Below are positions 1-30,018 of a stretch of DNA of 64,000 nt, piece after piece (the first letter of the stretch is position 1; each line of letters opens with the position of its first letter). A program made the position numbers and the translations under genes. The stretch comes from Escherichia coli. GTDB taxonomy: Bacteria > Pseudomonadota > Gammaproteobacteria > Enterobacterales > Enterobacteriaceae. Location of the stretch: the NCBI RefSeq assembly GCF_016903815.1, contig NZ_CP069973.1, one strand, 5' to 3'. The notes beneath the pieces are model-generated. The model did no database searches and had not been told where the DNA came from. It worked only from the letters and a program-made list of their open reading frames with translations.

Positions 1-1
1 G

Positions 2-3000
2 TGCTCGGTGTGTCCGGGCAGGATGACTTCGGGCAACCCGGTAAATCCGCTGCTGGGGGCGAAGGTGCTGCCCGGCGAGACGGACCTTGCGCTGCCCGGC
101 CCGCTGCCGTTCATTCTCTCCCGCACCTACAGCAGCTACCGGACGAAGACGCCTGCGCCGGTGGGGATTTTTGGCCCCGGCTGGAAAGCGCCTTCTGATA
201 TCCGCTTACAGATACGCGATGATGCACTGGTACTCAACGACAACGGCGGACGGAGCATTCACTTTGAGCCGCTGCTGCCGGGGGGGGCGGTGTACAGCCG
301 CAGCGAGTCAATGTGGCTGGTTCGCGGTGGTAAGGCAGCGCAGCCGGACGGCCACACGCTGGCACGGCTGTGGGCGTCGCTGCCGCCGGATATCCGGTTA
401 AGCCCGCATCTTTACCTGGCGACCAACAGCGCACAGGGACCGTGGTGGATACTGGGGTGGTCAGAGCGGGTGCCGGGCACTGAGGACGTACTGCCAGCGC
501 CGCTGCCGCCGTACCGGGTGCTTACCGGGCTGGCGGACCGCTTCGGGCAGACGCTGACGTACCGGCGTGAGGCCGCCGGTGACCTGGCCGGGGAAATCAC
601 CGGCGTGACGGACGGTGCCGGGCGGGAGTTCCGTCTGGTGCTGACCACACAGGCGCAGCGTGCGGAAGAGGCCCGCACCTCTTCGCTATCTTCTTCTGAC
701 CGTTCCCGCCCTCTCTCAGCCTCAGCGTTCCCCGACACACTGCCCGGTACGGAATACGGCCCCGACAGGGGTATCCGCCTTTCGGCGGTGTGGCTGATGC
801 ACGACCCGGCATACCCGGAGAATCTGCCCGGTGCGCCACTGGTGCGGTACACGTATACGGAAGCCGGTGAACTGCTGGCGGTATATGACCGCAGCGGGAC
901 ACAGGTGCGCGCTTTCACGTATGACCCGCAGCACCCGGGCCGGATGGTGGGGCACCGTTATGCGGGAAGGCCGGAGATGCGCTACCGCTACGACGATGCG
1001 GGGCGGGTGGTGGAGCAGCTGAACCCGGCAGGCCTGAGTTACCGCTACCAGTATGAGCAGGACCGCATCACCGTCACCGACAGCCTGAACCGGCGAGAGG
1101 TGCTGCATACAGAAGGCGGGGCCGGGCTGAAGCGGGTGGTGAAAAAAGAACTGGCGGACGGCAGCGTCACGCACAGCGGGTATGACGCGGCAGGAAGGCT
1201 CACGGCGCAGACGGACGCGGCGGGACGGCGGACAGAGTACGGTCTGAATGTGGTGTCAGGCGACATCACGGACATCACCACGCCGGACGGGCGGGAGACG
1301 AAATTTTACTATAACGACGGGAACCGGCTGACGGCGGTGGTGTACCCGGACGGGCTGGAGAGCCGCCGGGCGTATGATGAGCGGGACAGGCTGGTATCGG
1401 AGACATCGCGCAGCGGGGAGACAGTACGCTACCGCTACGATGACGCGCACAGTGAGTTACCGGCGACGACAACGGATGCGACGGGCAGCACCCGGCAGAT
1501 GACGTGGAGCCGCTACGGGCAGTTGCTGGCGTTCACTGACTGCTCGGGCTACCAGACCCGTTATGAATACGACCGCTTCGGCCAGATGACGGCGGTTCAC
1601 CGCGAGGAAGGTATCAGCCGTTACCGCCGCTATGACAACCGTGGCCGGTTAACCTCGGTGAAAGACGCACAGGGCCGTGAAACGCGGTATGAATACAACG
1701 CCGCAGGCGACCTGACTGCCGTTATCACCCCGGACGGCAACCGGAGCGAGACACAGTACGATGCGTGGGGAAAGGCGGTCAGCACCACACAGGGCGGGCT
1801 GACGCGCAGTATGGAGTATGACGCGGCAGGACGTGTCATCAGCCTGACCAACGAGAACGGCAGTCACAGCGACTTCAGCTACGATGCGCTGGACCGGCTG
1901 GTACAGCAGCGCGGCTTTGACGGGCGGACGCAACGTTACCACTATGACCTGACCGGAAAACTCACGCAGAGTGAAGATGAGGGGCTTGTCACCCTCTGGC
2001 ACTACGACGAATCGGACCGTATCACTCACCGCACGGTGAACGGCGAACCGGCAGAACAGTGGCGGTATGATGGCCACGGCTGGCTGAGAGAAATCAGCCA
2101 CCTGAGCGAAGGCCACCGTGTTGCCGTCCACTATGGCTATGACGATAAGGGCCGTCTGACCGGGGAGCGCCAGACGGTGGAGAACCCGGAGACGGGGGAA
2201 CTGCTGTGGCAGCATGAGACGAAACAGGCATACAACGAACAGGGGCTGGCAAACCGCGTCACGCCGGACAGCCTGCCGCCGGTGGAGTGGCTGACCTACG
2301 GTAGCGGTTATCTGGCGGGCATGAAGCTGGGCGACACGCCGCTGCTGGAGTACGCGCGCGACCGCCTGCACAGAGAAACGGTGCGCAGCTTTGGCAGCAT
2401 GGCAGGCAGTAATGCCGCATACGAACTGACCAGCACATACACCCCTGCAGGCCAGTTACAGAGCCAGCACCTGAACAGCCTGGTGTATGACCGTGACTAC
2501 GGGTGGAATGACAACGGCGACCTTGTGCGCATCAGCGGCCCGCGACAGACGCGGGAATACGGCTACAGTGCCACGGGCAGGCTGGCGAGTGTACGCACCC
2601 TCGCACCGGACCTGGACATCCGCATCCCGTATGCCACGGACCCGGCGGGCAACCGGCTGCAGGACCCGGAGCTGCACCCGGACAGTACACTCACGGCGTG
2701 GCCGGATAACCGCATCGCGGAGGATGCGCACTATGTCTACCGCCACGATGAATACGGCAGGCTGACGGAGAAGACGGACCGCATCCCGGCGGGTGTGATA
2801 CGGACGGACGACGAGCGGACCCACCACTACCACTACGACAGCCAGCACCGCCTGGAGTTCTACACGCGGATACAGCATGGCGAGCCACTGGTCGAGAGCC
2901 GCTACCTCTACGACCCGCTGGGACGGCGAATGGCGAAACGGGTATGGCGGCGGGAGCGTGACCTGACGGGGTGGATGTCGCTGTCGCGTAAACCGGAGGT

Positions 3001-4024
3001 GACGTGGTACGGCTGGGACGGCGACCACCTGACGACGGTGCAGACCGACAGCACACGTATCCAGACGGTATACGAGCCGGGAAGCTTCACACCGCTCATC
3101 CGCATCGAAACAGACAACGGCGAGCGGGAGAAAACGCAGCGGCGGAGCCTGGCGGAGAAGCTCCAGCAGGAAGGGAGCGAGGACGGACACGGCGTGGTGT
3201 TCCCGGCTGAACTGGTACGGCTGCTGGACAGACTGGAGGGGGAAATCCGGGCAGACCGCGTGAGCAGTGAAAGCCGCCAGTGGCTGGCACAGTGCGGGCT
3301 GACGGTGGAGCGGCTGGCGACACAGATAGAGCCGGTTTATTTACCTGAGCGAAAAATTCATCTTTACCACTGTGACCACCGGGGGCTGCCGCTGGCGCTC
3401 ATCAGCGAAGACGGCAATACGGCGTGGAGCGGGGAGTATGATGAGTGGGGAAACCTGCTGAATGAGGAAAACCCGCATCACCTGCACCAGCCGTACCGTC
3501 TGCCAGGGCAGCAACACGATGAGGAGTCAGGGCTGTATTATAACCGGAACCGGTACTACAATCCGTTGCTGGGACGATATATTACTCAGGACCCGATTGG
3601 GCTGGCGGGGGGATGGAGTCTGTATGCGTATCCGCTGAATCCGGTGAATGGTATTGATCCATTAGGGTTAAGTCCTGCAGATGTAGCGTTAATGCGAAAA
3701 AAAGAACAACTAAACCATCAAAGAGCATGGGATATATTATCTGATACTTATGATGATATGAAGAGATTAAATTTAGGTGGGACTGATCAATTTTTCCATT
3801 GTATGGCATTTTGTCGAGTGTCTAAATTAAATGACGCTGGTGTTAGCCGATCAGCGAAAGGGCTGGGTTATGAAAAAGAGATTAGAGATTACGGGTTAAA
3901 TATGTTCGGTATGTACGGCAGAAAAGTAAAGTTATCCCATTCTGAGATGATTGAAGATAATAAAAAAGACTTGGCTGTAAATGAACATGGGTTGACATGT
4001 CCATTTACACAAGATTGCTGGTAA
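2..4024 (+). CDS. rhsD: Rhs family YD-repeat protein (classical RhsA-D type), 5' end outside window; core ends at the DPIGL motif (~3600) and is followed by a lower-GC C-terminal toxin tip that is truncated by IS1
   Basis: 1338-aa continuous ORF with many YD-repeat motifs (RYRYD, YEYD, YDxxGR) and the PxxxxDPxGL core boundary '[18 protein letters not shown]'; symbol is from its position upstream of mnmH as in K-12, not from the tip sequence. Confidence 0.85.
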
Positions 4025-4074
4025 TGCTGCCAACTTACTGATTTAGTGTATGATGGTGATTTTAAGGTGCTTGC

Positions 4075-4350
4075 GTGGCTTCCATTTCCATCAGATGTCC
4101 TTCCTGCTCCGCTACTGAAGGCGTGGTGCGTAACGGCAAAAGCACTGCCGGACATCAGCGCTATCTCTGCTCTCATTGCCGTAAAACATGGCAACTACAG
4201 TTCACTTACACCGCCTCTCAGCCCGGTACGCACCAGAAAATCATTGATATGGCCATGAATGGCGTCGGATGTCGCGCCAGTGCACGCATTATGGGCGTTG
4301 GCCTCAACACGGTTTTACGTCACTTAAAAAACTCAGGCCGCAGTCGGTAA
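4075..4350 (+). CDS. insA: IS1 InsA protein
   Basis: 91-aa ORF '[37 protein letters not shown]...' matches remembered IS1 InsA. Confidence 0.9.
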
Positions 4351-4772
4351 CCTCGCGCATACAACCGGGCAGTGATGTGATTGTCTGCGCTGAAATGGAC
4401 GAACAGTGGGGCTACGTCGGTGCTAAATCACGTCAGCGCTGGCTGTTTTACGCGTATGACAGGATACGGAGGACGGTTGTGGCGCACGTCTTCGGTGAAC
4501 GCACTCTGGCCACACTGGAGCGTCTTCTGAGCCTGCTGTCGGCCTTTGAGGTCGTGGTATGGATGACGGATGGCTGGCCGCTGTATGAATCACGCCTGAA
4601 GGGAAAGCTGCACGTTATCAGCAAGCGTTACACTCAGCGCATTGAGCGACATAATCTGAATCTGAGACAACATCTGGCAAGGCTGGGACGGAAGTCACTG
4701 TCGTTCTCAAAATCGGTGGAGCTGCATGACAAGGTCATCGGGCATTATCTGAACATAAAACACTATCAGTAA
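4269..4772 (+). CDS. insB: IS1 InsB (transposase reading frame, normally expressed as InsAB' by -1 frameshift)
   Basis: 167-aa ORF overlapping insA in a different frame, ending '...[12 protein letters not shown]'. Confidence 0.85.
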
Positions 4773-4855
4773 GTTGGAGTCATTACCAGATTGCTCAAAT
4801 AGATGTATTGATTATATTAATCCAGAGCATAAAAAAACGATAAAGGCTTTACAAG

Positions 4856-5347
4856 ATGCTGGCTATCTCAAGTAACATCTCAAAGATGGTAATATTTATT
4901 TTTGCTATTATAATCGTTGTTTTTTTATGCGTGACTACTTATCTTTATTTACACAAAGATGAATCTCTTGTAAGTAAGCATTACATAAACTATATGGCAA
5001 TACCAGAAAGTGATGGGGTTTTTACATGGCTCCCAGATTTTTTTCCGCATGTAGCGGTGGATATATCAATATCCACAAATGTAGAAGATGATTATTTTTT
5101 TTCTTATTTTTCCCTAACAATCGATGATGGGGGGAGGTTTAAGAAAACATTGACGGTGAGGGCCAGGGAACAAGTGGCGAAAATCGTATCAGAGAATGAT
5201 CCAGATACAAAAAAAGTGTGGTGTAAATATGGTAAAATACCAGGGCAAGGGGATAGCGTAAACCTTTTTTTTGTTGGTGAAATTAATGTTACGCATTATT
5301 TTATAACAAATATTGGAGCTGGATTGCCTGATGCTTGTGCAGAGTAA
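4856..5347 (+). CDS. Hypothetical protein with N-terminal hydrophobic helix; putative immunity protein for the upstream Rhs toxin tip (alternative start at 4886)
   Basis: ORF directly downstream of the Rhs toxin tip, low GC; its start overlaps the reconstructed pre-IS1 end of the Rhs ORF (stop at 4873-4875); function inferred from position only. Confidence 0.45.
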   Translation: MLAISSNISKMVIFIFAIIIVVFLCVTTYLYLHKDESLVSKHYINYMAIPESDGVFTWLPDFFPHVAVDISISTNVEDDYFFSYFSLTIDDGGRFKKTLTVRAREQVAKIVSENDPDTKKVWCKYGKIPGQGDSVNLFFVGEINVTHYFITNIGAGLPDACAE

Positions 5348-5631
5348 TTGCTTGAATTAAGAGTCTATCCCATATCGAAGTCGTCAACTTCGTAGTGAGG
5401 AAAAGTAAAATCCCTGACTGAGAAAAGACATGTCGGCTATTGTGTAAAGCCATATAGCTCAGACGATGAATATCTACTCGTATTCAGTTGTTTATTGAGG
5501 GTGAGTTCCGACCCTGAAACAACAAATAAAATGAATAGTCAGAGAGTTTACATAGAATTGCACTAGTCTTTTACGATATCTGACATTGTGTAATACATAT
5601 TCAGCCATGCATTAATTAAAATGTTTCGTGT

Positions 5632-6269
5632 TTAATGTGAGTCCCTATCTGAAAATAAATAATCCTTCCGGATTAAAATAAATTCTCGCCGGGAAAGAAA
5701 GAGGAAATAAACCATTAGCGGAAAACCAGCGGCACGCCAGGGTGACATGCCCCAGTACGGCGGCCCGATAGTCCAGGGTTCAGCGGGGGTACTGATAGTC
5801 GCGCCGACTGCATCGAGAACTCCATACAACTTTTTACGGAACGTCACCTGATAAAATTTGTTCAGTATCGTCTTTTGAGATTCTCAAGGTTATGGAGTAA
5901 CCAGACAGAACGGACACCACTGTCGGAGATAAAAACCCCCTGTTTACGCAGCTCGTTGCTGGCCCGGTGCTGACCATGTGTCGGGAAAGCGACGGTGTAA
6001 TCAACAACAGCCTGTTCAGTTGCCTCATCGGTACGGTTCTTAAGGTTAGGAGCGCGGCGACTACGATTAATCTGCACATCCACACCGCCTTCAGCGGCCA
6101 GTTCGCGGTAACGATAAAACGTTTCACGCGAAACGCCCATGATTTTACAGGCTTTTGATACGTTGCTGAGTTCTTCAGCCAGATTGAGCAAACCGGCTTT
6201 GTGTTTGATGACGGGATTGGCAGTATGAAGCATGAGAGTTACCTCTTGTTTTGGATAAGGATTCGACAC
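5632..6269 (-). pseudogene. Truncated transposase remnant (N-terminal helix-turn-helix region followed by frame-disrupted fragment); family uncertain, possibly IS481-like
   Basis: 135-aa ORF (5862..6269) with HTH-like 'SKACKIMGVSRETFYRYRELAAEGG', then a 71-aa ORF in another frame (5632..5847); no full-length transposase or inverted repeats found. Confidence 0.45.
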
Positions 6270-19381: not shown

Positions 19382-20167
19382 TTAAATCTCTACGTCGCGG
19401 TTGCAATCTTTTGAGTAAATATAACTAAACGCTTCACCACGCCCTACGCCATAACCGGCCTGTAAGGAATAAGCGCCCATAAAGATGTAATCGCCTTTTT
19501 TCACCGGGATCCAGTTATTGTCGAGGTTATAAACCCCCTGACCGGAAAGAATATAGGCACCGTGTTCCTGGACGTGAGTTTCGATATAACCGTGGCTGGC
19601 ACCTGGCGCAAAAGAGAGGATATGCATGTTCATATCAAAACCTAACTCTTTGGGCAGAAAATCCAGCAGAATAACATCGTCCATGCCTTCATAATGAATG
19701 CGTTCGAGTTCGCTGGCATTGCCAGAAACTAGCCACGGCGCATGACCTTCTACCGGAACATAGCGACGCTTATATAAAAAGATTTGGCTGTCTTCGGCCT
19801 GGGCGTTAACAAACGTCATTAAGGAGCCTGGTGGGCAATAAAGATAGCCACCTTCGCTTAAGGCAAATGTTTTATCTTCGGCTTTGGCAGTGATATTTCC
19901 AGAGATCACATACAGGAACGTTTCAATGCCTTCGCCCCCGAAGCCCTGTTGGTTGCCACCGTTTTGATGCAGTGTGACCAGATAATCAACAAAAGAGGCC
20001 CCCAGCTTTGGCGTGGAGAGGATTGTCGCGTCACAATTTTCAAAGCCAGGAATAATATTTTTTACCAGACCATCCGGGGTTAACAGCGCGAAATTACCGT
20101 GTTTAACAATCGCACGGTTAGCCAGTAAATCATCGCGGTAACCGGTGACGTTATTTAAATATCCCAT
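19382..20167 (-). CDS. allE: (S)-ureidoglycine aminohydrolase (cupin)
   Basis: 261-aa ORF; synteny (ylbA position). Confidence 0.8.
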   Translation of the reverse strand: MGYLNNVTGYRDDLLANRAIVKHGNFALLTPDGLVKNIIPGFENCDATILSTPKLGASFVDYLVTLHQNGGNQQGFGGEGIETFLYVISGNITAKAEDKTFALSEGGYLYCPPGSLMTFVNAQAEDSQIFLYKRRYVPVEGHAPWLVSGNASELERIHYEGMDDVILLDFLPKELGFDMNMHILSFAPGASHGYIETHVQEHGAYILSGQGVYNLDNNWIPVKKGDYIFMGAYSLQAGYGVGRGEAFSYIYSKDCNRDVEI

Positions 20168-20177
20168 TTATAACTCC

Positions 20178-21413
20178 TTATTTCTTCCAGGCAAGTTGAT
20201 AAAGCATGAGTGCCAACGTTTTGACCCCTTCGGCAAGGTCGGTAATATTGGTGCGTTCCGCCGGGTTATGGCTGATCCCGTTGATGCTGGGAATGAAAAT
20301 CATGCAGGTCGGCACGCGCGGCGCGAAAATTTGTGCGTCGTGCCCGGCACCACTGTGCATCACCCGGTAATTCAGTTTTTCGCTTTCACACAATTCTGTC
20401 AGGGTGGTGACCAGGTCCTTATTCATCGGCACGGGTTCTTCGTCCATCCATAAATCGATATCAATACCAATGTCCATTTCATCGCAAATCGCCCGCATGT
20501 CGTTTTCTAACTGTTGGGTGAAATCGCGCAGCACGGCAGCATCGGTATGGCGACAATCAATGGTGAACGTGGTTTTACCCGGCACCACATTCACCGTATT
20601 CGGGCGCGGCTCTACTTTGCCAAAGGTCAGAACCAGCGGATCGCCCATCTTTTTCGCTTTTTCGACAGACTGATGGCAAATGCGACTGAAAGCGTAAACC
20701 GTATCACGACGATAACCCATCGGCGTGGTGCCTGCATGGTTTGATTCGCCATTCAGCGTCACCGTATAACGACGCTGCCCGACAATTGCATTCACCACGC
20801 CAATTGACTGCCCATTACTTTCCAGCACACAGCCCTGTTCGATATGCAGTTCGACAAAGGCTTTAATATCCTGACGCGGAGTTAGTGGGGCGTTCGGCAG
20901 AGTAAATCCGCAAGCCTTCATCGCATCGACAAAACTATTTCCTTTGGCATCACAGATATTCCGCACGTCGTCAGGATTCGCCAGCCCAAAGATATTTTTA
21001 CTGCCCCAGAAGACATACGGGAAGCGGCTGCCTTCTTCTTCTGCCATCGCCACCACTTCGACCGTACGTAACGGCGCGCCGTATTGCGTTTTCAACCAGT
21101 CAATTGCCAGCCACGCCGCCAGCGCGCCGAATTGCCCGTCGAGGTTACCGCCGTTAACCACGGTATCGATATGCGAACCGCTCAGAACCACTTCTTGTGG
21201 ATATTCGGTGCCACTCAGGCGACCATATAAATTCCCCACTTCATCGAAACGTGTTTCCAGCCCGCTTGCTGCCATTCTTTTTTTAAATTGCTGCTGAGTT
21301 TCCAGCCATTCCGGCGAATAAAGTAAACGGGTCATCCCACCCGTTGGGTCAGCGCCAAAAGAGGAAAGCCAGGGCAGCGTTTCTTCTATGGCTTGACGAA
21401 AATGTGTAATCAT
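20178..21413 (-). CDS. allC: Allantoate amidohydrolase (M20 peptidase family)
   Basis: 411-aa product from 'MITHFRQAIEETLP...'; synteny. Confidence 0.85.
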   Translation of the reverse strand: MITHFRQAIEETLPWLSSFGADPTGGMTRLLYSPEWLETQQQFKKRMAASGLETRFDEVGNLYGRLSGTEYPQEVVLSGSHIDTVVNGGNLDGQFGALAAWLAIDWLKTQYGAPLRTVEVVAMAEEEGSRFPYVFWGSKNIFGLANPDDVRNICDAKGNSFVDAMKACGFTLPNAPLTPRQDIKAFVELHIEQGCVLESNGQSIGVVNAIVGQRRYTVTLNGESNHAGTTPMGYRRDTVYAFSRICHQSVEKAKKMGDPLVLTFGKVEPRPNTVNVVPGKTTFTIDCRHTDAAVLRDFTQQLENDMRAICDEMDIGIDIDLWMDEEPVPMNKDLVTTLTELCESEKLNYRVMHSGAGHDAQIFAPRVPTCMIFIPSINGISHNPAERTNITDLAEGVKTLALMLYQLAWKK

Positions 21414-21434
21414 AAGAAAGTCCTGTCTCAATAA

Positions 21435-22484
21435 TTATTGCGCAAAGGGATTTTTCGTTTCGTATGACGTGTTATAAAGCGCGTCGGAAATTAAATACTG
21501 GTAAATATCATCAACAATTTCGATGCCTTCGACGGCGGCTTTGCGTTGTTTAATATCCTGATCCTGTCCGGGATAATAAACCTGGTTAAAACCGGGCGCG
21601 GGGGTTATGGCATTTAATTCGCGCATGGTCTGGCTAAGATGTTGACGGAATAGTTCGCTGGAGGAGAAAAAGTTCGGATTAATAACGATATGTAATTGCC
21701 CCAAATTACGCCCGGCGTGTAAATCGTCATACATCGAACTAACCTGTCGCCCGAACGGTAAGCCGAGTAAGACGCCTGAGAGGACGTCAATCATCATCAT
21801 CAGGCCATACCCTTTCGGCCCGGCGGCGGGGAGCAGAGCATGTACCGCGAACGGATCGGTTGTTGGTGCTCCGTTTTTATCGACCGCCTAGGTATCCGGG
21901 ATAGACATATTACGCGAGCGGGCGTCGAGCACTTTTCCCCATGCCTGTACGGTAGTCGCCATATCAAAGGTAAGGATCTCGTCGCCTTCTCCCGGCGCGG
22001 CAAAGGCCAGTGGGTTAGTACCGTAGTAAATTTCCGCGCCGCCAAACGGCACCACCATTGGATCGGACTGGCACATCGAAATGCCAATTAATCCGGCGCG
22101 GGCTGCCTGCTGCACAAAATAAGAGATTGCGCCGCTGTGACCCATCCGGCTGATACCGACCACCGCAACGCCATTTTGCTGGGCGGTTTTGATGGCATGT
22201 TCCATACCCATTTTCGCCGCGACCTGTCCGGCGGCATTGTCAGCATGTAAAATTGCTGAACATGGCCCGGTTTCTTCAAGACGAAACTCCGGTTCGCGGT
22301 TGGTGCCGCCTTTTGAAATGCGTTCCGCGTAGTATTCCACGCGCACCGCGCCATGAGAGTGGATCCCTCTGGCATCGGCGTAAACCAATACTTCAGCCAC
22401 GGTTGCAGCGTGCTCACGTTTTAACCCAGCCTGGCAGAGTTTATTCTCGATTAGCTGGTGGAGTGTTTCCCGACTGATTTTCAT
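21435..22484 (-). pseudogene. allD: Ureidoglycolate dehydrogenase interrupted by a single in-frame TAG at 21888-21890 (codon 199 of 349)
   Basis: ORFs 21888..22484 (198 aa) and 21435..21800 (121 aa) are in the same frame; the span is exactly 350 codons; sequence around the stop reads '...SIPDT*AVDKNG...'. Confidence 0.85.
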
Positions 22485-22800
22485 CTGTCTTCCTTTTTAA
22501 CGACGGTGTGAAGCATGACTGCAATTAACATACAGGGAAAATATCTGGATTATGTGATCCAGACAGGCAAAAAAATATAGTTAGAATTTATTTGATAATC
22601 CGCTCGCTTTTAACCTGGTTTTTAAAACAACCACGCTTATTAAAAAATAACACGTAATAGCCTGGCGGTTATTTGAATTCTTTTGTTAATAATCCCTGTG
22701 TGATATTCATCACCTTATTTACTCGTTGTCATCGATACCGTAATCGCCACATTAACACTGCTCGTGCAATTGCCATGGGTGCAATTTTTAAGGAGTTGTT

Positions 22801-24468
22801 ATGATCCACGCCTTTATTAAAAAAGGGTGTTTTCAGGATTCGGTCAGTTTAATGATTATTTCACGAAAACTCAGCGAATCAGAAAATGTTGATGATGTTT
22901 CCGTAATGATGGGTACGCCCGCCAATAAAGCGTTATTAGAGACCACAGGTTTCTGGCATGACGATTTTAATAACGCCACGCCGAACGATATTTGCGTGGC
23001 AATTCGTAGCGAAGCGGCGGATGCGGGGATCGCGCAGGCGATTATGCAACAGCTTGAAGAGGCGCTAAAACAACTGGCGCAGGGTTCAGGCAGCAGCCAG
23101 GCGTTGACGCAGGTGCGTCGCTGGGACAGTGCCTGTCAGAAATTACCCGATGCCAGTCTGGCGCTGATTTCAGTGGCTGGCGAGTATGCGGCGGAACTGG
23201 CGAATCAGGCGCTGGATCGCAACCTCAACGTGATGATGTTCTCCGATAACGTCACGCTGGAAGATGAAATCCAGCTCAAAACCCGCGCACGCGATAAAGG
23301 CTTGCTGGTGATGGGGCCGGACTGCGGTACGTCGATGATTGCCGCCACGCCGCTGGCTTTTGCTAACGTGATGCCGGAAGGCAACATTGGCGTCATTGGC
23401 GCTTCCGGTACCGGGATTCAGGAGCTGTGTTCGCAGATTGCGCTGGCAGGTGAGGGAATTACCCACGCGATTGGTCTTGGCGGGCGCGACCTCAGCCGTG
23501 AAGTGGGCGGCATCAGTGCGCTAACGGCGCTGGAAATGCTCAGTGCAGACGAGAAAAGCGAAGTGCTGGCATTTGTTTCAAAACCACCTGCCGAAGCTGT
23601 GCGTCTGAAAATTGTTAATGCCATGAAAGCAACTGGCAAACCGACGGTGGCGCTGTTTTTAGGTTATACCCCGGCGGTAGCCCGCGACGAGAATGTCTGG
23701 TTTGCCTCCTCGCTGGATGAGGCCGCACGCCTGGCTTGCCTGCTTTCACGCGTTACGGCGCGACGTAACGCAATAGCGCCTGTCAGCAGCGGATTTATTT
23801 GCGGTTTGTATACCGGCGGTACGCTGGCCGCTGAAGCGGCGGGATTACTTGCCGGACACCTTGGCGTGGAAGCCGACGATACCCATCAACATGGCATGAT
23901 GCTCGACGCCGACGGACATCAGATCCTCGACCTGGGCGATGATTTTTACACCGTCGGGCGTCCCCATCCGATGATCGACCCGACCTTACGCAACCTGTTA
24001 ATTGCCGATCTCGGCGCTAAACCGCAAGTGCGCGTGTTGCTGCTTGATGTCGTGATTGGCTTCGGTGCGACCGCCGATCCTGCCGCCTCGCTGGTGAGCG
24101 CCTGGCAAAAAGCCTGTGCCGCGCGTTCTGACAGCCAACCGCTGTACGCCATTGCCACGGTGACAGGTACCGAACGTGACCCGCAATGCCGCTCGCAGCA
24201 AATCGCCACGCTGGAAGATGCGGGGATCGCGGTTGTGAGTTCGCTGCCGGAAGCCACCTTGCTGGCGGCAGCGTTAATTCATCCGCTCTCGCCTGCCACA
24301 CAGCAACACACACCGTCATTACTGGAAAACGTCGCCGTGATTAACATCGGATTACGCAGCTTTGCGCTGGAGCTACAAAGCGCCAGCAAACCGGTTGTGC
24401 ATTACCAATGGTCGCCAGTCGCCGGCGGCAATAAAAAACTGGCTCGTTTATTAGAACGTTTGCAATAA
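22801..24468 (+). CDS. fdrA: FdrA protein (acyl-CoA synthetase-like)
   Basis: 555-aa ORF; synteny. Confidence 0.8.
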   Translation: MIHAFIKKGCFQDSVSLMIISRKLSESENVDDVSVMMGTPANKALLETTGFWHDDFNNATPNDICVAIRSEAADAGIAQAIMQQLEEALKQLAQGSGSSQALTQVRRWDSACQKLPDASLALISVAGEYAAELANQALDRNLNVMMFSDNVTLEDEIQLKTRARDKGLLVMGPDCGTSMIAATPLAFANVMPEGNIGVIGASGTGIQELCSQIALAGEGITHAIGLGGRDLSREVGGISALTALEMLSADEKSEVLAFVSKPPAEAVRLKIVNAMKATGKPTVALFLGYTPAVARDENVWFASSLDEAARLACLLSRVTARRNAIAPVSSGFICGLYTGGTLAAEAAGLLAGHLGVEADDTHQHGMMLDADGHQILDLGDDFYTVGRPHPMIDPTLRNLLIADLGAKPQVRVLLLDVVIGFGATADPAASLVSAWQKACAARSDSQPLYAIATVTGTERDPQCRSQQIATLEDAGIAVVSSLPEATLLAAALIHPLSPATQQHTPSLLENVAVINIGLRSFALELQSASKPVVHYQWSPVAGGNKKLARLLERLQ

Positions 24469-24477
24469 GGGGTTTCC

Positions 24478-25737
24478 ATGTTTACATCAGTGGCGCAAGC
24501 CAATGCTGCGGTTATCGAACAAATTCGTCGCGCTCGTCCACACTGGCTGGATGTGCAACCGGCTTCTTCACTTATCAGCGAACTAAACAAGGGCAAAACA
24601 CTGCTTCACGCCGGGCCGCCAATGCGCTGGCAGGAGATGACCGGACCCATGAAAGGGGCGTGCGTGGGCGCATGTCTGTTCGAAGGCTGGGCGAAAGATG
24701 AGGCGCAGGCGCTGGCAATACTGGAGCAGGGGGAAGTGAACTTCATTCCTTGTCACCATGTGAATGCCGTCGGGCCAATGGGCGGCATTACTTCTGCCAG
24801 TATGCCGATGCTGGTGGTCGAGAACGTGACCGACGGCAACCGGGCGTACTGCAACCTCAACGAAGGTATCGGCAAAGTGATGCGTTTTGGCGCTTACGGC
24901 GAAGATGTCCTGACTCGCCATCGCTGGATGCGCGATGTGTTAATGCCAGTATTAAGTGCGGCGCTGGGGCGCATGGAGCGCGGTATCGATCTCACGGCGA
25001 TGATGGCGCAGGGCATTACCATGGGCGATGAGTTTCATCAACGCAATATTGCTTCCTCTGCACTGTTAATGCGTGCGCTGGCCCCACAAATTGCTCGCCT
25101 CGATCATGATAAACAACACATCGCGGAAGTGATGGATTTCCTCAGCGTGACCGATCAGTTCTTCCTTAACCTCGCGATGGCTTACTGCAAGGCGGCGATG
25201 GATGCTGGTGCGATGATCCGTGCAGGCAGCATCGTCACGGCTATGACCCGCAACGGCAATATGTTCGGGATTCGGGTCAGCGGGCTGGGCGAACGCTGGT
25301 TTACTGCGCCTGTAAACACTCCCCAAGGTCTGTTTTTCACCGGCTTCTCGCAGGAGCAGGCGAACCCGGATATGGGCGATAGCGCAATTACCGAAACCTT
25401 TGGTATCGGAGGTGCGGCAATGATCGCAGCGCCTGGCGTAACGCGCTTTGTCGGTGCGGGTGGCATGGAAGCGGCCAGAACCGTTTCTGAAGAGATGGCG
25501 GAAATTTACCTTGAGCGCAATATGCAGTTGCAGATCCCCGGCTGGGATTTCCAGGGCGCGTGCCTGGGACTGGACATTCGTCGCGTGGTAGAAACCGGCA
25601 TTACGCCACTCATCAATACCGGTATCGCCCATAAAGAGGCGGGGATCGGGCAGATTGGCGCAGGCACTGTGCGGGCACCGTTGGCCTGCTTTGAACAGGC
25701 GCTGGAAGCACTGGCTGAAAGCATGGGGATTGGTTGA
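24478..25737 (+). CDS. ylbE: DUF1116 protein YlbE, intact here
   Basis: 419-aa continuous ORF; synteny. Confidence 0.75.
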
Positions 25738-25747
25738 GGAACGCGCA

Positions 25748-26563
25748 ATGACGATCATCCATCCTCTGCTTGCCAGCCGTAGCGCTCCGAATTATCGCCA
25801 GTCCTGGCGGTTAGCGGGCGTGTGGCGGCGGGCGATTAACCTGATGACGGAAAGCGGCGAACTGTTAACGCTGCATCGTCAGGGTAGTGGTTTCGGCCCC
25901 GGAGGATGGGTGCTTCGCCGCGCGCAATTCGATGCGTTATGCGGTGGATTATGCGGCAATGAACGACCACAGGTTGTGGCTCAAGGCATTTGCCTCGGAC
26001 GTTTCACGGTTAAACAGCCACAGCGTTATTGTTTGCTGCGTATTACGCCGCCTGCGCATCCTCAACCGCTTGCAGCGGCATGGATGCAACGCGCGGAGGA
26101 AACCGGGCTTTTCGGGCCGCTGGCGTTGGCGGCAGGCGATCCGCTGCCTGCTGAATTACGCCAGTTTCGTCACTGTTTTCAGGCCGCGCTCAATGGCGTT
26201 AAGACCGACTGGCGGCACTGGCTGGGTAAAGGGCCGGGATTAACGCCGAGTCATGATGACACGCTGACGGGAATGCTGCTGGCAGCCTGGTATTATGGCG
26301 CTTTAGATGCGCGCTCCGGTCGCCCGTTTTTTGCCTGTTCCGACCATCTTCAACTCGTTACCACTGCGGTGAGCGTTAATTATTTACGTTATGCCGCGCA
26401 AGGATATTTCGCCTCGCCACTCCTGCACTTTGTTCATGCTCTGAGTTGCCCGAAACGTACCGCTGTTGCGATTGATTCGCTGCTGGCGCTGGGACATACG
26501 TCAGGGGCAGATACGCTGCTGGGGTTCTGGCTTGGTCAACAATTATTACAAGGAAAACCATGA
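25748..26563 (+). CDS. ylbF: Conserved protein YlbF
   Basis: 271-aa product from '[12 protein letters not shown]'; the longer ORF-track start overlaps ylbE. Confidence 0.7.
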
Positions 26564-27453
26564 AAACACTGGTTGTAGCTCTTGGGGGCAATGCCTTGCT
26601 TCAGCGCGGTGAGGCGCTGACGGCAGAAAATCAATATCGCAATATCGCCAGCGCTGTACCCGCACTGGCGTGCCTGGCCCGTTCTTATCGGCTGGCGATT
26701 GTTCACGGCAACGGGCCACAGGTGGGGCTGTTGGCGTTACAGAATCTGGCGTGGAAAGAGGTAGAACCGTATCCGCTGGATGTGCTGGTGGCGGAAAGCC
26801 AGGGGATGATTGGCTATATGCTGGCGCAGAGCTTGAGCGCACAGCCGCAGATGCCGCCTGTCACGACGGTGCTGACGCGCATTGAGGTTTCGCCTGATGA
26901 TCCGGCGTTTTTGCAGCCAGAGAAGTTTATCGGTCCGGTTTATCAGCCAGAAGAACAAGAGACACTGGAAGCGGCTTACGGCTGGCAGATGAAACGTGAT
27001 GGTAAATATTTGCGCCGGGTGGTAGCGTCTCCGCAACCGCGTAAAATTCTCGACAGCGAAGCCATCGAGTTGTTGCTCAAAGAGGGGCATGTGGTGATTT
27101 GCAGTGGCGGCGGCGGTGTGCCTGTGACGGATGACGGAGCAGGGAGTGAAGCAGTGATTGATAAAGATCTCGCCGCTGCGTTGCTCGCCGAGCAGATTAA
27201 TGCCGATGGGCTGGTGATCCTCACCGATGCTGATGCGGTATATGAAAACTGGGGAACGCCGCAGCAACGTGCCATTCGCCATGCCACACCGGATGAGTTA
27301 GCGCCATTTGCCAAAGCCGATGGTTCGATGGGGCCGAAGGTAATGGCGGTGAGTGGCTATGTCAGAAGCCGTGGCAAACCTGCGTGGATTGGGGCGTTAT
27401 CGCGGATTGAAGAGACGCTGGCGGGCGAAGCGGGGACCTGTATTTCGCTGTAG
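26560..27453 (+). CDS. ybcF: Carbamate kinase-like protein
   Basis: 297-aa ORF with amino-acid kinase fold features; ATGA overlap with ylbF; synteny. Confidence 0.8.
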
Positions 27454-27522
27454 TGATTGGGGTATTTGGCAAGAATTAAGGCTCTGAGAAAGATTCCAAA
27501 CCCCAAATAAGAACGCGGACAG

Positions 27523-27561
27523 TCCCCTCGCCCCTGTGGGGAGAGGGTTAGGGTGAGGGGG
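27523..27561. repeat. GC-rich imperfect palindromic intergenic element (REP-like)
   Basis: 'tcccctcgcccctgtggggagagggttagggtgaggggg' between convergent ybcF and purK; family not confirmed. Confidence 0.3.
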
Positions 27562-27605
27562 AAAACTGCTTGCGCATTAGCTTTTAAGCAGGTTTGTGCA
27601 CCAGG

Positions 27606-28673
27606 TTAACTGAACTTACTCTGCGCCCAAATCACGCCACTGGCATACTCCGGCGGCAGCAGCGGGATTAAGGCTTCCAGCGCCGCGGTCAGACGCGATG
27701 TGTCGCTGTCGGTCAAATTCAGATGCCCCACTTTACGCCCCGGACGGACTTCTTTGTCGTACCAGTGCAGATGCACCAGCGGCAATTTCAGCCAGTCATA
27801 ATTCACATCGCTACCAATCAGGTTGATCATCACCGACGGACTATTCACTACTGGTTGCGGTAACGGCAGATCGGTAATCGCCCGCAGATGCAGCTCAAAC
27901 TGGCTGATGCTGGCACCGTTTTGCGTCCAGTGACCACTGTTATGCACACGCGGAGCCAGTTCGTTGATCAGCAGACCTTGCGGGGTGACAAAGCACTCCA
28001 TCGCCATCACGCCCACATAGCCCAGCTCCTGCATAATCGCCGACAGCATCTCTTCGGCTTGCGCTTGCTGCTGCGCATTGGCCTGCGGGAAAGCGACGCT
28101 GGTACGCAAAATACCGTCCTGATGCAGGTTATGCGTCAGCGGATAAAACACGGTGCTACCATCAAAGCCGCGCGCGCCAACCAGCGACACTTCGCCAGAG
28201 AAGTTTATGCCCTGCTCGACAATACATTCGCCGTAGCATTCAGCCGGTAACTGTTCGGTTTCATCGGCGCGTAAACGCCATTGACCGCGTCCGTCATAGC
28301 CACCAGTGCGACGCTTAACAATCGCCAGCTCACCTAAACGCTTAAACACCGCAGGCCACTCGCTGCGATCGGCAAGTAACTGCCACGGTGCGGTCGGTAG
28401 GTGAAGCTTGTCGAAAAGCTGCTTCTGAGTCAGACGGTCAGCAATAATCGGGAATACATCGCGGTTCACAAAGGCCGGATGGCGCGCCAGCTCGCGGGTT
28501 AATGCGGTTTCCGGCCAGCGTTCGATCTCAGCGGTAATCACGCTTTGTTGAAAAGGCACCGCCGCCGGTTCAGCGTCCAGCCCGACTGGCCAGACAGCAA
28601 TGCCTAACGGTTCGCCTGCCTGGCGCAGCATACGGCCTAACTGCCCGTTACCGAGGACGCAAACCTGTTTCAT
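27606..28673 (-). CDS. purK: N5-carboxyaminoimidazole ribonucleotide synthase
   Basis: 355-aa ATP-grasp ORF overlapping purE stop/start. Confidence 0.9.
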
Positions 28674-29179
28674 GCCGCACCTCGCGGGTCTGGGTTTTCC
28701 AGCACTTCGTCAGTCTGGGCTTTGCGCCAGTCATTCAGACGCTGGTGCAGTTCTTTATCATGAGTCGCAAGAATTTGTGCTGCCAGTAACGCCGCGTTTG
28801 CCGCGCCAGCTTTACCAATCGCCAGCGTACCCACCGGAATGCCGCGCGGCATTTGTACGATGGAGTAGAGGCTATCGACACCGCTCAGTGCGGCGCTCTG
28901 TACTGGCACGCCCAGCACTGGCACCAGCGTTTTGGCGGCAATCATGCCTGGCAGGTGCGCTGCGCCGCCTGCGCCCGCAATAATCACCTGATAACCGTTT
29001 TCTTCGGCACTTTCGGCGAAGCTGAACAGTTTATCGGGGGTGCGGTGAGCAGAAACCACTTCAACGTGGTGTGGGACATTCAGGATTTCGAAGATTTCGG
29101 CGGCGAACTGCATGGTAGCCCAGTCGCTTTTGGACCCCATCACGATGGCGACACGCGCCGGATTATTGCGGGAAGACAT
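28670..29179 (-). CDS. purE: N5-carboxyaminoimidazole ribonucleotide mutase
   Basis: 169-aa product from '[20 protein letters not shown]'. Confidence 0.9.
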
Positions 29180-29295
29180 GCGTCTTAAAACTCCTGTGGT
29201 GCACAACTCTCGGCTTTAGAGGGCACAGAGAATAGCACGGAAAGAGAGCAAGGAAAACGGTTGCGTGGCTGTGAAATCAGCAAAGTTGCGGGTAT

Positions 29296-30018
29296 TTAAA
29301 ACGGAAAATGAATCAGCTCAACGTCATCTGCCGTGACTTTCACCATTGAACCTTCCGTATGCCAGGCACCCAGTACCACGCGAAAAGCAGGTTGCTGATT
29401 GGCGATAAGTTCATGCACCGCCGGGCGATGGGTATGCCCGTGGATCAGCCATTGCACCTGATGTTTTTCCATCGCACTGACCACCGCGTTTTGGTTAACG
29501 TCCATGATCGCCAGCGATTTACTGCTGTTGGCTTCTTTGCTGTTCGCGCGCATTCGCGCGGCAATGCGTTTGCGCACAAACAATGGCAGAGCGAGGAATA
29601 GCGTCTGCAGCCAGGGTTTGTGGACTTTGGCGCGAAAAGCCTGATAACCGGCGTCATCGGTGCACAGCGTGTCGCCATGCATAATCAATACCCGGCGACC
29701 ATACAGTTCGAGCACCTTTTCTTCCGGCAATAACGTCATGCCGCTTTCACGGGCAAAGCGTTTGCCGAGCAGAAAATCACGGTTGCCATGAATGAAATAA
29801 CAGGGAACACCGGAATCGGACACCGCTTTGATCGCTGCCGCCATCTGGCGATGGAGTGGGTTGGGATCGTCGTCGCCAATCCACGCTTCAAACAGATCGC
29901 CAAGAATATACAGCGCGTCGGCCTTGCGGGCTTCCCCCGCTAAAAAACGCAGAAAACCGGCGGTGATCGCCGGTTCTTCCGCGCAGAGATGAAGATCTGC
30001 AATAAAGAGTGTCGCCAC
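29296..30018 (-). CDS. lpxH: UDP-2,3-diacylglucosamine hydrolase
   Basis: 240-aa calcineurin-like phosphoesterase with 'DLHL' and 'GNRD' motifs. Confidence 0.9.

Follow-up and report, generated by a model that had tools for sequence, protein, structure and literature searches.

An ordinary intact ylbE (allG) gene in the allFGHK operon of an Escherichia coli strain, and the probable origin of its K-12 "frameshift" in a superseded reference

The ylbE gene in the stretch of Escherichia coli DNA analyzed here (64,000 nucleotides of contig NZ_CP069973.1, hereafter the window) is almost certainly an ordinary intact allG, the second gene of the allFGHK operon. It offers no contrast to K-12, and the "frameshift" ascribed to the K-12 gene is most probably a discrepancy between four and five G residues in a reference sequence that has since been superseded, surviving in only a few legacy or reference-derived records. 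Neither the gene nor its family nor its function is new, and an intact copy matters little in itself, being the rule in E. coli and having a published function. Within the allantoin cluster, what truly distinguishes this lineage is a nonsense allele of the neighboring allD. The features that define the gene itself are as follows.

24478 to 25737, plus strand: ylbE (allG) coding sequence, 419 codons plus TGA, from the open reading frame listing, the sequence, and the Pfam match
24467 to 24472, plus strand: AAGGGG resembling a Shine-Dalgarno sequence, sharing bases with the stop codon of fdrA and lying 5 nt before the ylbE ATG
24736 to 25383, plus strand: the part of ylbE coding for the AllG/DUF1116 domain (amino acids 87-302), from Pfam

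A preliminary description of this DNA had reported an intact 419-codon ylbE, and both the open reading frame listing and the sequence itself confirm this, with an ATG at 24478 and a TGA closing at 25737. The annotations of K-12 and of strain 7/2 (NZ_CP023820.1) place the start and stop of the gene at these same codons. The latter strain is 100% identical to the window in both ylbE and allD, and its annotated gene coordinates coincide with the open reading frames of the window over the ∼10.6 kb compared (window positions 19382-30018). The position of the AAGGGG motif, overlapping the stop codon of fdrA and only 5 nt ahead of the ylbE ATG, suggests tight translational coupling of the two genes. 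By collinearity with the strain 7/2 annotation, positions 1-6233 of the window would contain, upstream of mnmH and allS, a gene for an RHS element core protein, a copy of IS1 (about 4075-4772), a ylbG remnant, and small partial open reading frames.

The product matches the Pfam profile PF06545 over its entire length (profile positions 1-215 of 215) with E=8e-98 and 326.7 bits against a cut-off of 27. This family, formerly DUF1116, now bears the short name AllG and the title "Oxamate carbamoyltransferase subunit AllG." NCBIfam holds no model matching either YlbE or YlbF, and the names of these two proteins come from Pfam only. Besides exceeding the profile cut-off, the protein has the full length of the family (∼420 residues) and is collinear with both K-12 b4572 and the protein of PDB entry 3clq. 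As judged from its sequence, then, the product of 24478 to 25737 is the AllG subunit of oxamic transcarbamylase. That so long a frame might instead be open by chance, or be a mis-called gene, can be dismissed outright. The random occurrence of 419 open codons has a probability of (61/64)^419, or ∼2e-9, and the match to Pfam is accompanied by one to the PDB homologue at E=9e-112. The gene is, moreover, conserved at a coverage of at least 80% in 5,417 of 5,426 complete E. coli genomes, and of the substitutions that separate it from the K-12 gene 27 are synonymous and only 3 non-synonymous.

The preliminary description had also taken ylbE of MG1655 to be a pseudogene split by a frameshift and had proposed an alignment with K-12 as the check. 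That alignment finds the K-12 gene intact at the corresponding positions, which disposes of the claim. In the current MG1655 reference (NC_000913.3), ylbE (b4572, YP_009029994.1) is annotated as an intact coding sequence of 1260 bp at 548357..549616, and all 1260 bases align with the window without a gap, with 30 substitutions (97.6% nucleotide identity). A second, independent MG1655 assembly (NZ_CM184145.1) carries a ylbE identical to that of NC_000913.3. An intact ylbE does not, therefore, set this strain apart from K-12. The further suggestion that the strain keeps the ancestral functional allele fares better in its first half. Because the gene in the window is intact over its full length and evolves under purifying selection, it is the ancestral form; a functional block, on the other hand, cannot be claimed without qualification in view of the premature stop in allD.

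Where the idea of a K-12 pseudogene came from can be followed in the older records. The RefSeq entry for W3110 (NC_007779.1) gives ylbE at 547581..548839, a length of 1259 bp, and flags it as "frameshifted." The W3110, MG1655 v3, and window genes were aligned over their first 400 bases, which contain the one-base difference in length, and within this region W3110 departs from MG1655 v3 at just two sites.

24729 to 24733, plus strand: GGGGG run, ylbE nucleotides 252-256; the window shares all five G with MG1655 NC_000913.3, and W3110 NC_007779.1 has GGGG
24591, plus strand: ylbE nucleotide 114, a synonymous GAG/GAA difference; the window and MG1655 v3 share a G, for which the W3110 legacy record has A

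Removal of one G of the run from the K-12 gene brings a stop at codon 87, just ahead of the AllG domain, which lies wholly 3′ of the frameshift site; a stop at this codon explains why the gene was once split under the name "ylbE_1." As for the second difference, nucleotide 114 of the W3110 gene, which starts at 547581, is coordinate 547694, and a resequencing study reported an a→g change in "ylbE_1" at genomic position 547694 relative to the MG1655 reference of the time (PMC2973815). From the agreement of these coordinates (the start at 547581 and the polymorphism at 547694) and the wording of the resequencing papers, we infer that the old MG1655 reference, U00096.2, carried the same four G residues as W3110. 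That reference was superseded by U00096.3 in 2013, as no deposited isolate matched it (PMC5210515).

A reading in which K-12 truly possesses a frameshifted ylbE, so that the intact allele of the window represents a meaningful contrast between ancestral and derived states, must be weighed against the distribution of the two forms. It draws on the 1259-bp, "frameshifted" ylbE of W3110 NC_007779.1 and of strains CIT, LIM, and CAR, and on older literature that gives "ylbE" as one of the lesions in the reference genotype (PMC4759930). When the W3110 gene is used as the query, however, these four records are the only ones among the matches listed with 100% identity over 1259 bp, and the remaining 56 matches listed all have the 1260-bp form. 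Named K-12 derivatives make up most of the latter, among them numerous stocks of MG1655 as well as DH5alpha, DH1, C600, NCM3722, J53, RR1, and AG100. A 35-mer centered on the four G residues, which can match no other allele, because megablast needs an exact word of 28 bases, recovers the same 4 of 5,426 genomes. In the CAR, LIM, and CIT assemblies (NZ_CP026026.1, NZ_CP026027.1, and NZ_CP026028.1), the legacy frameshift occurs in a ylbE placed at coordinates 547581 or 547582. These are old-reference coordinates, which suggests that the sequences are consensuses derived from the reference rather than real alleles.

The resequenced stocks tell against a real frameshift as well. Real stocks of MG1655 and NCM3722 prove to be ylbE+ when compared with the old reference (PMC3045373, PMC4759930, and PMC2973815), and the ylbE "frameshift mutation" described for NCM3722 gives back the intact ancestral gene (PMC3045373). 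Together with the intact gene of NC_000913.3 and its exact counterpart in the independent assembly, these observations leave a real K-12 frameshift scarcely credible, and it may be regarded as already largely refuted. The distribution of the four-G form among genomes points instead to a legacy sequence error, probably not a real allele of W3110. The "K-12 ylbE pseudogene" belongs to U00096.2 and persists in the W3110 RefSeq record, and because legacy records keep the frameshift, comparisons against them go on yielding false calls of a "restored ancestral gene."

Across the species, an intact ylbE is the norm, and the gene was exactly 1260 bp in 39 of 40 evenly sampled records. One exception was noted in strain AR_0085 (NZ_CP029741.1), in which ylbE is reduced to its final 35% (query positions 822-1260), adjoining fdrA; the operon of that strain has undergone a deletion or rearrangement.

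The genes around ylbE form the block fdrA-ylbE-ylbF-ybcF that the preliminary description had named, and the open reading frame listing, the domain matches, and the annotation all bear this out. They stand in the order allF-allG-allH-allK, divergent from allECD, and all of the partners are intact.

22485 to 22800, plus strand: allD-allF intergenic region of 316 bp with the allF operon promoter, aligned to K-12 without indels
22801 to 24468, plus strand: fdrA (allF), 555 amino acids, with CoA_binding and Ligase_CoA domains; 545/555 residues identical to K-12, no gaps
25748 to 26563, plus strand: ylbF (allH), 271 amino acids, Pfam AllH; 265/271 identical to K-12, no gaps
26560 to 27453, plus strand: ybcF (allK), carbamate kinase, 297 amino acids, with a 4-nt overlap between its start and the end of allH; aligned to K-12 without gaps at 293/297 identical residues

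The function of these genes is published. AllF-AllG-AllH is the oxamic transcarbamylase of anaerobic allantoin degradation; deletion of allG abolishes the formation of oxamate from allantoin, and the purified complex is active when assayed in the reverse direction (Kim & Kim 2024, PMC11326118). By analogy, AllG of the window would join AllF (FdrA) and AllH (YlbF) to give an enzyme of anaerobic allantoin breakdown that converts oxalurate and phosphate to oxamate and carbamoyl phosphate, and AllK (YbcF) would use the carbamoyl phosphate to produce ATP, NH3, and CO2. At 99.3% identity to the K-12 protein, the AllG allele of the window is probably active.

Activation of the operon by AllS and ArcA, both bound upstream of allF, is described in PMC12535856. 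Relative to K-12, the intergenic region contains nine substitutions, all between −195 and −107 from the allF ATG, and it is unchanged over the 121 bases at its beginning and the 106 at its end. These substitutions fall inside the fragments that, according to the same source, bind AllS (−203/−144) and ArcA (−142/−83). A scan of positions 22400-27700 for consensus promoters and terminators found no excess of either over shuffled sequence (3 promoter-like sites against 3.4 expected and 3 terminator-like sites against 6.6).

The departure from K-12 lies on the other side of this intergenic region.

21435 to 22484, minus strand: allD, a pseudogene of ureidoglycolate dehydrogenase; codon 199 of 349 changed from TGG to TAG, stop at 21888-21890, changed base 21889

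Codon 199 is TAG in the window and TGG in K-12, and the gene is split in the open reading frame listing; in strain 7/2, RefSeq annotates allD as a pseudogene with an "internal stop." The TAG is not a read error, since a 35-mer specific for it matches 104 of 5,426 genomes, meaning that roughly 2% of E. coli genomes carry allD W199* as the window does. All 60 of the matches listed for a whole-gene query are 100% identical, and one of these is an O102:H6 strain. The same local haplotype, defined by single-nucleotide polymorphisms at allD nucleotides 615 and 617, occurs with TGG in 764 genomes, and the TAG is therefore derived and restricted to a lineage. With the haplotype present in so many genomes, the two polymorphisms themselves were ruled out as lineage-specific outgroup markers. 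A search of the available papers for an allD pseudogene in this lineage found nothing relevant.

The consequence of this allele concerns the substrate of AllFGH. According to PMC12535856, AllD oxidizes ureidoglycolate to oxalurate, on which AllFGH acts. The window lacks an intact AllD to supply it, and because the maker of oxalurate is truncated, allFGHK may be without substrate in this lineage. Strains that carry the W199* allele are predicted to have lost the oxamate branch, which yields ATP.

It is accordingly possible, though somewhat less than an even chance in our estimation, that ylbE is intact but idle, the whole operon being a not-yet-decayed remnant of an oxamate branch that died with allD. 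The nonsense codon, the RefSeq pseudogene annotation, the fixation of TAG in 104 genomes, and the reported role of AllD in making oxalurate are all in keeping with such a state. Set against them is the condition of the operon, in which all four genes still encode full-length proteins, 98-99% identical to those of K-12. The low dN/dS of ylbE between the window and K-12, about 0.03, cannot settle the question, because it mostly reflects divergence older than the TAG.

The coexistence of allD W199* with a fully intact allFGHK also admits more elaborate explanations. The operon may have been kept by selection after the loss of allD, which would imply a role for AllFGH and AllK that does not depend on oxalurate made by AllD, or loss of allD may have been repeatedly favored, diverting ureidoglycolate to glyoxylate; we consider this pair of possibilities unlikely. 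Were an AllD-independent role to exist, it might involve, for example, another carbamoyl substrate or operation in the synthetic direction. The numbers of genomes matched, 5,324 for allD against 5,420 for ylbE, indicate that allD may have been lost more than once.

Variation at the junction of allC, allD, and allF was seen separately. With window positions 20900-23300 as the query, coverage falls below 80% in about 100 of the 5,407 genomes that match. Losses here include a truncated allD in NZ_CP075632.1 and an fdrA reduced to 93 bp in NZ_CM129861.1, and IS1 transposase genes are annotated under the junction match in NZ_CP173463.1 and NZ_CP075697.1.

The favored reading, of an ordinary intact allG, is best appreciated by setting the gene beside its known counterparts. 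The closest of these is YlbE/AllG of MG1655, which shares 416 of 419 residues with the protein of the window and agrees with it in length, start, stop, and operon position, differing only by E38K, A335T, and S355G. The legacy "ylbE_1/ylbE_2" pseudogene of W3110 NC_007779.1 and the old MG1655 reference U00096.2 is the same locus and, apart from the missing G and the A at nucleotide 114, the same K-12 sequence. A more distant relative is found in PDB entry 3clq, an "Uncharacterized protein" of 421 amino acids to which the entry assigns no function. This is a different protein from YlbE, and the likeness is one of sequence alignment, yet it is a full-length homologue, with its residues 7-418 aligned to residues 2-414 of YlbE, and an alignment of this extent implies that the 419-residue architecture is old. 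With respect to the characterized oxamic transcarbamylase, AllF-AllG-AllH (PMC11326118), the window encodes all three subunits as well as AllK, in the same order and at full length. The demonstrated activity, however, belongs to the K-12 proteins, and the lineage of the window differs from K-12 in that the preceding enzyme, AllD, is truncated.
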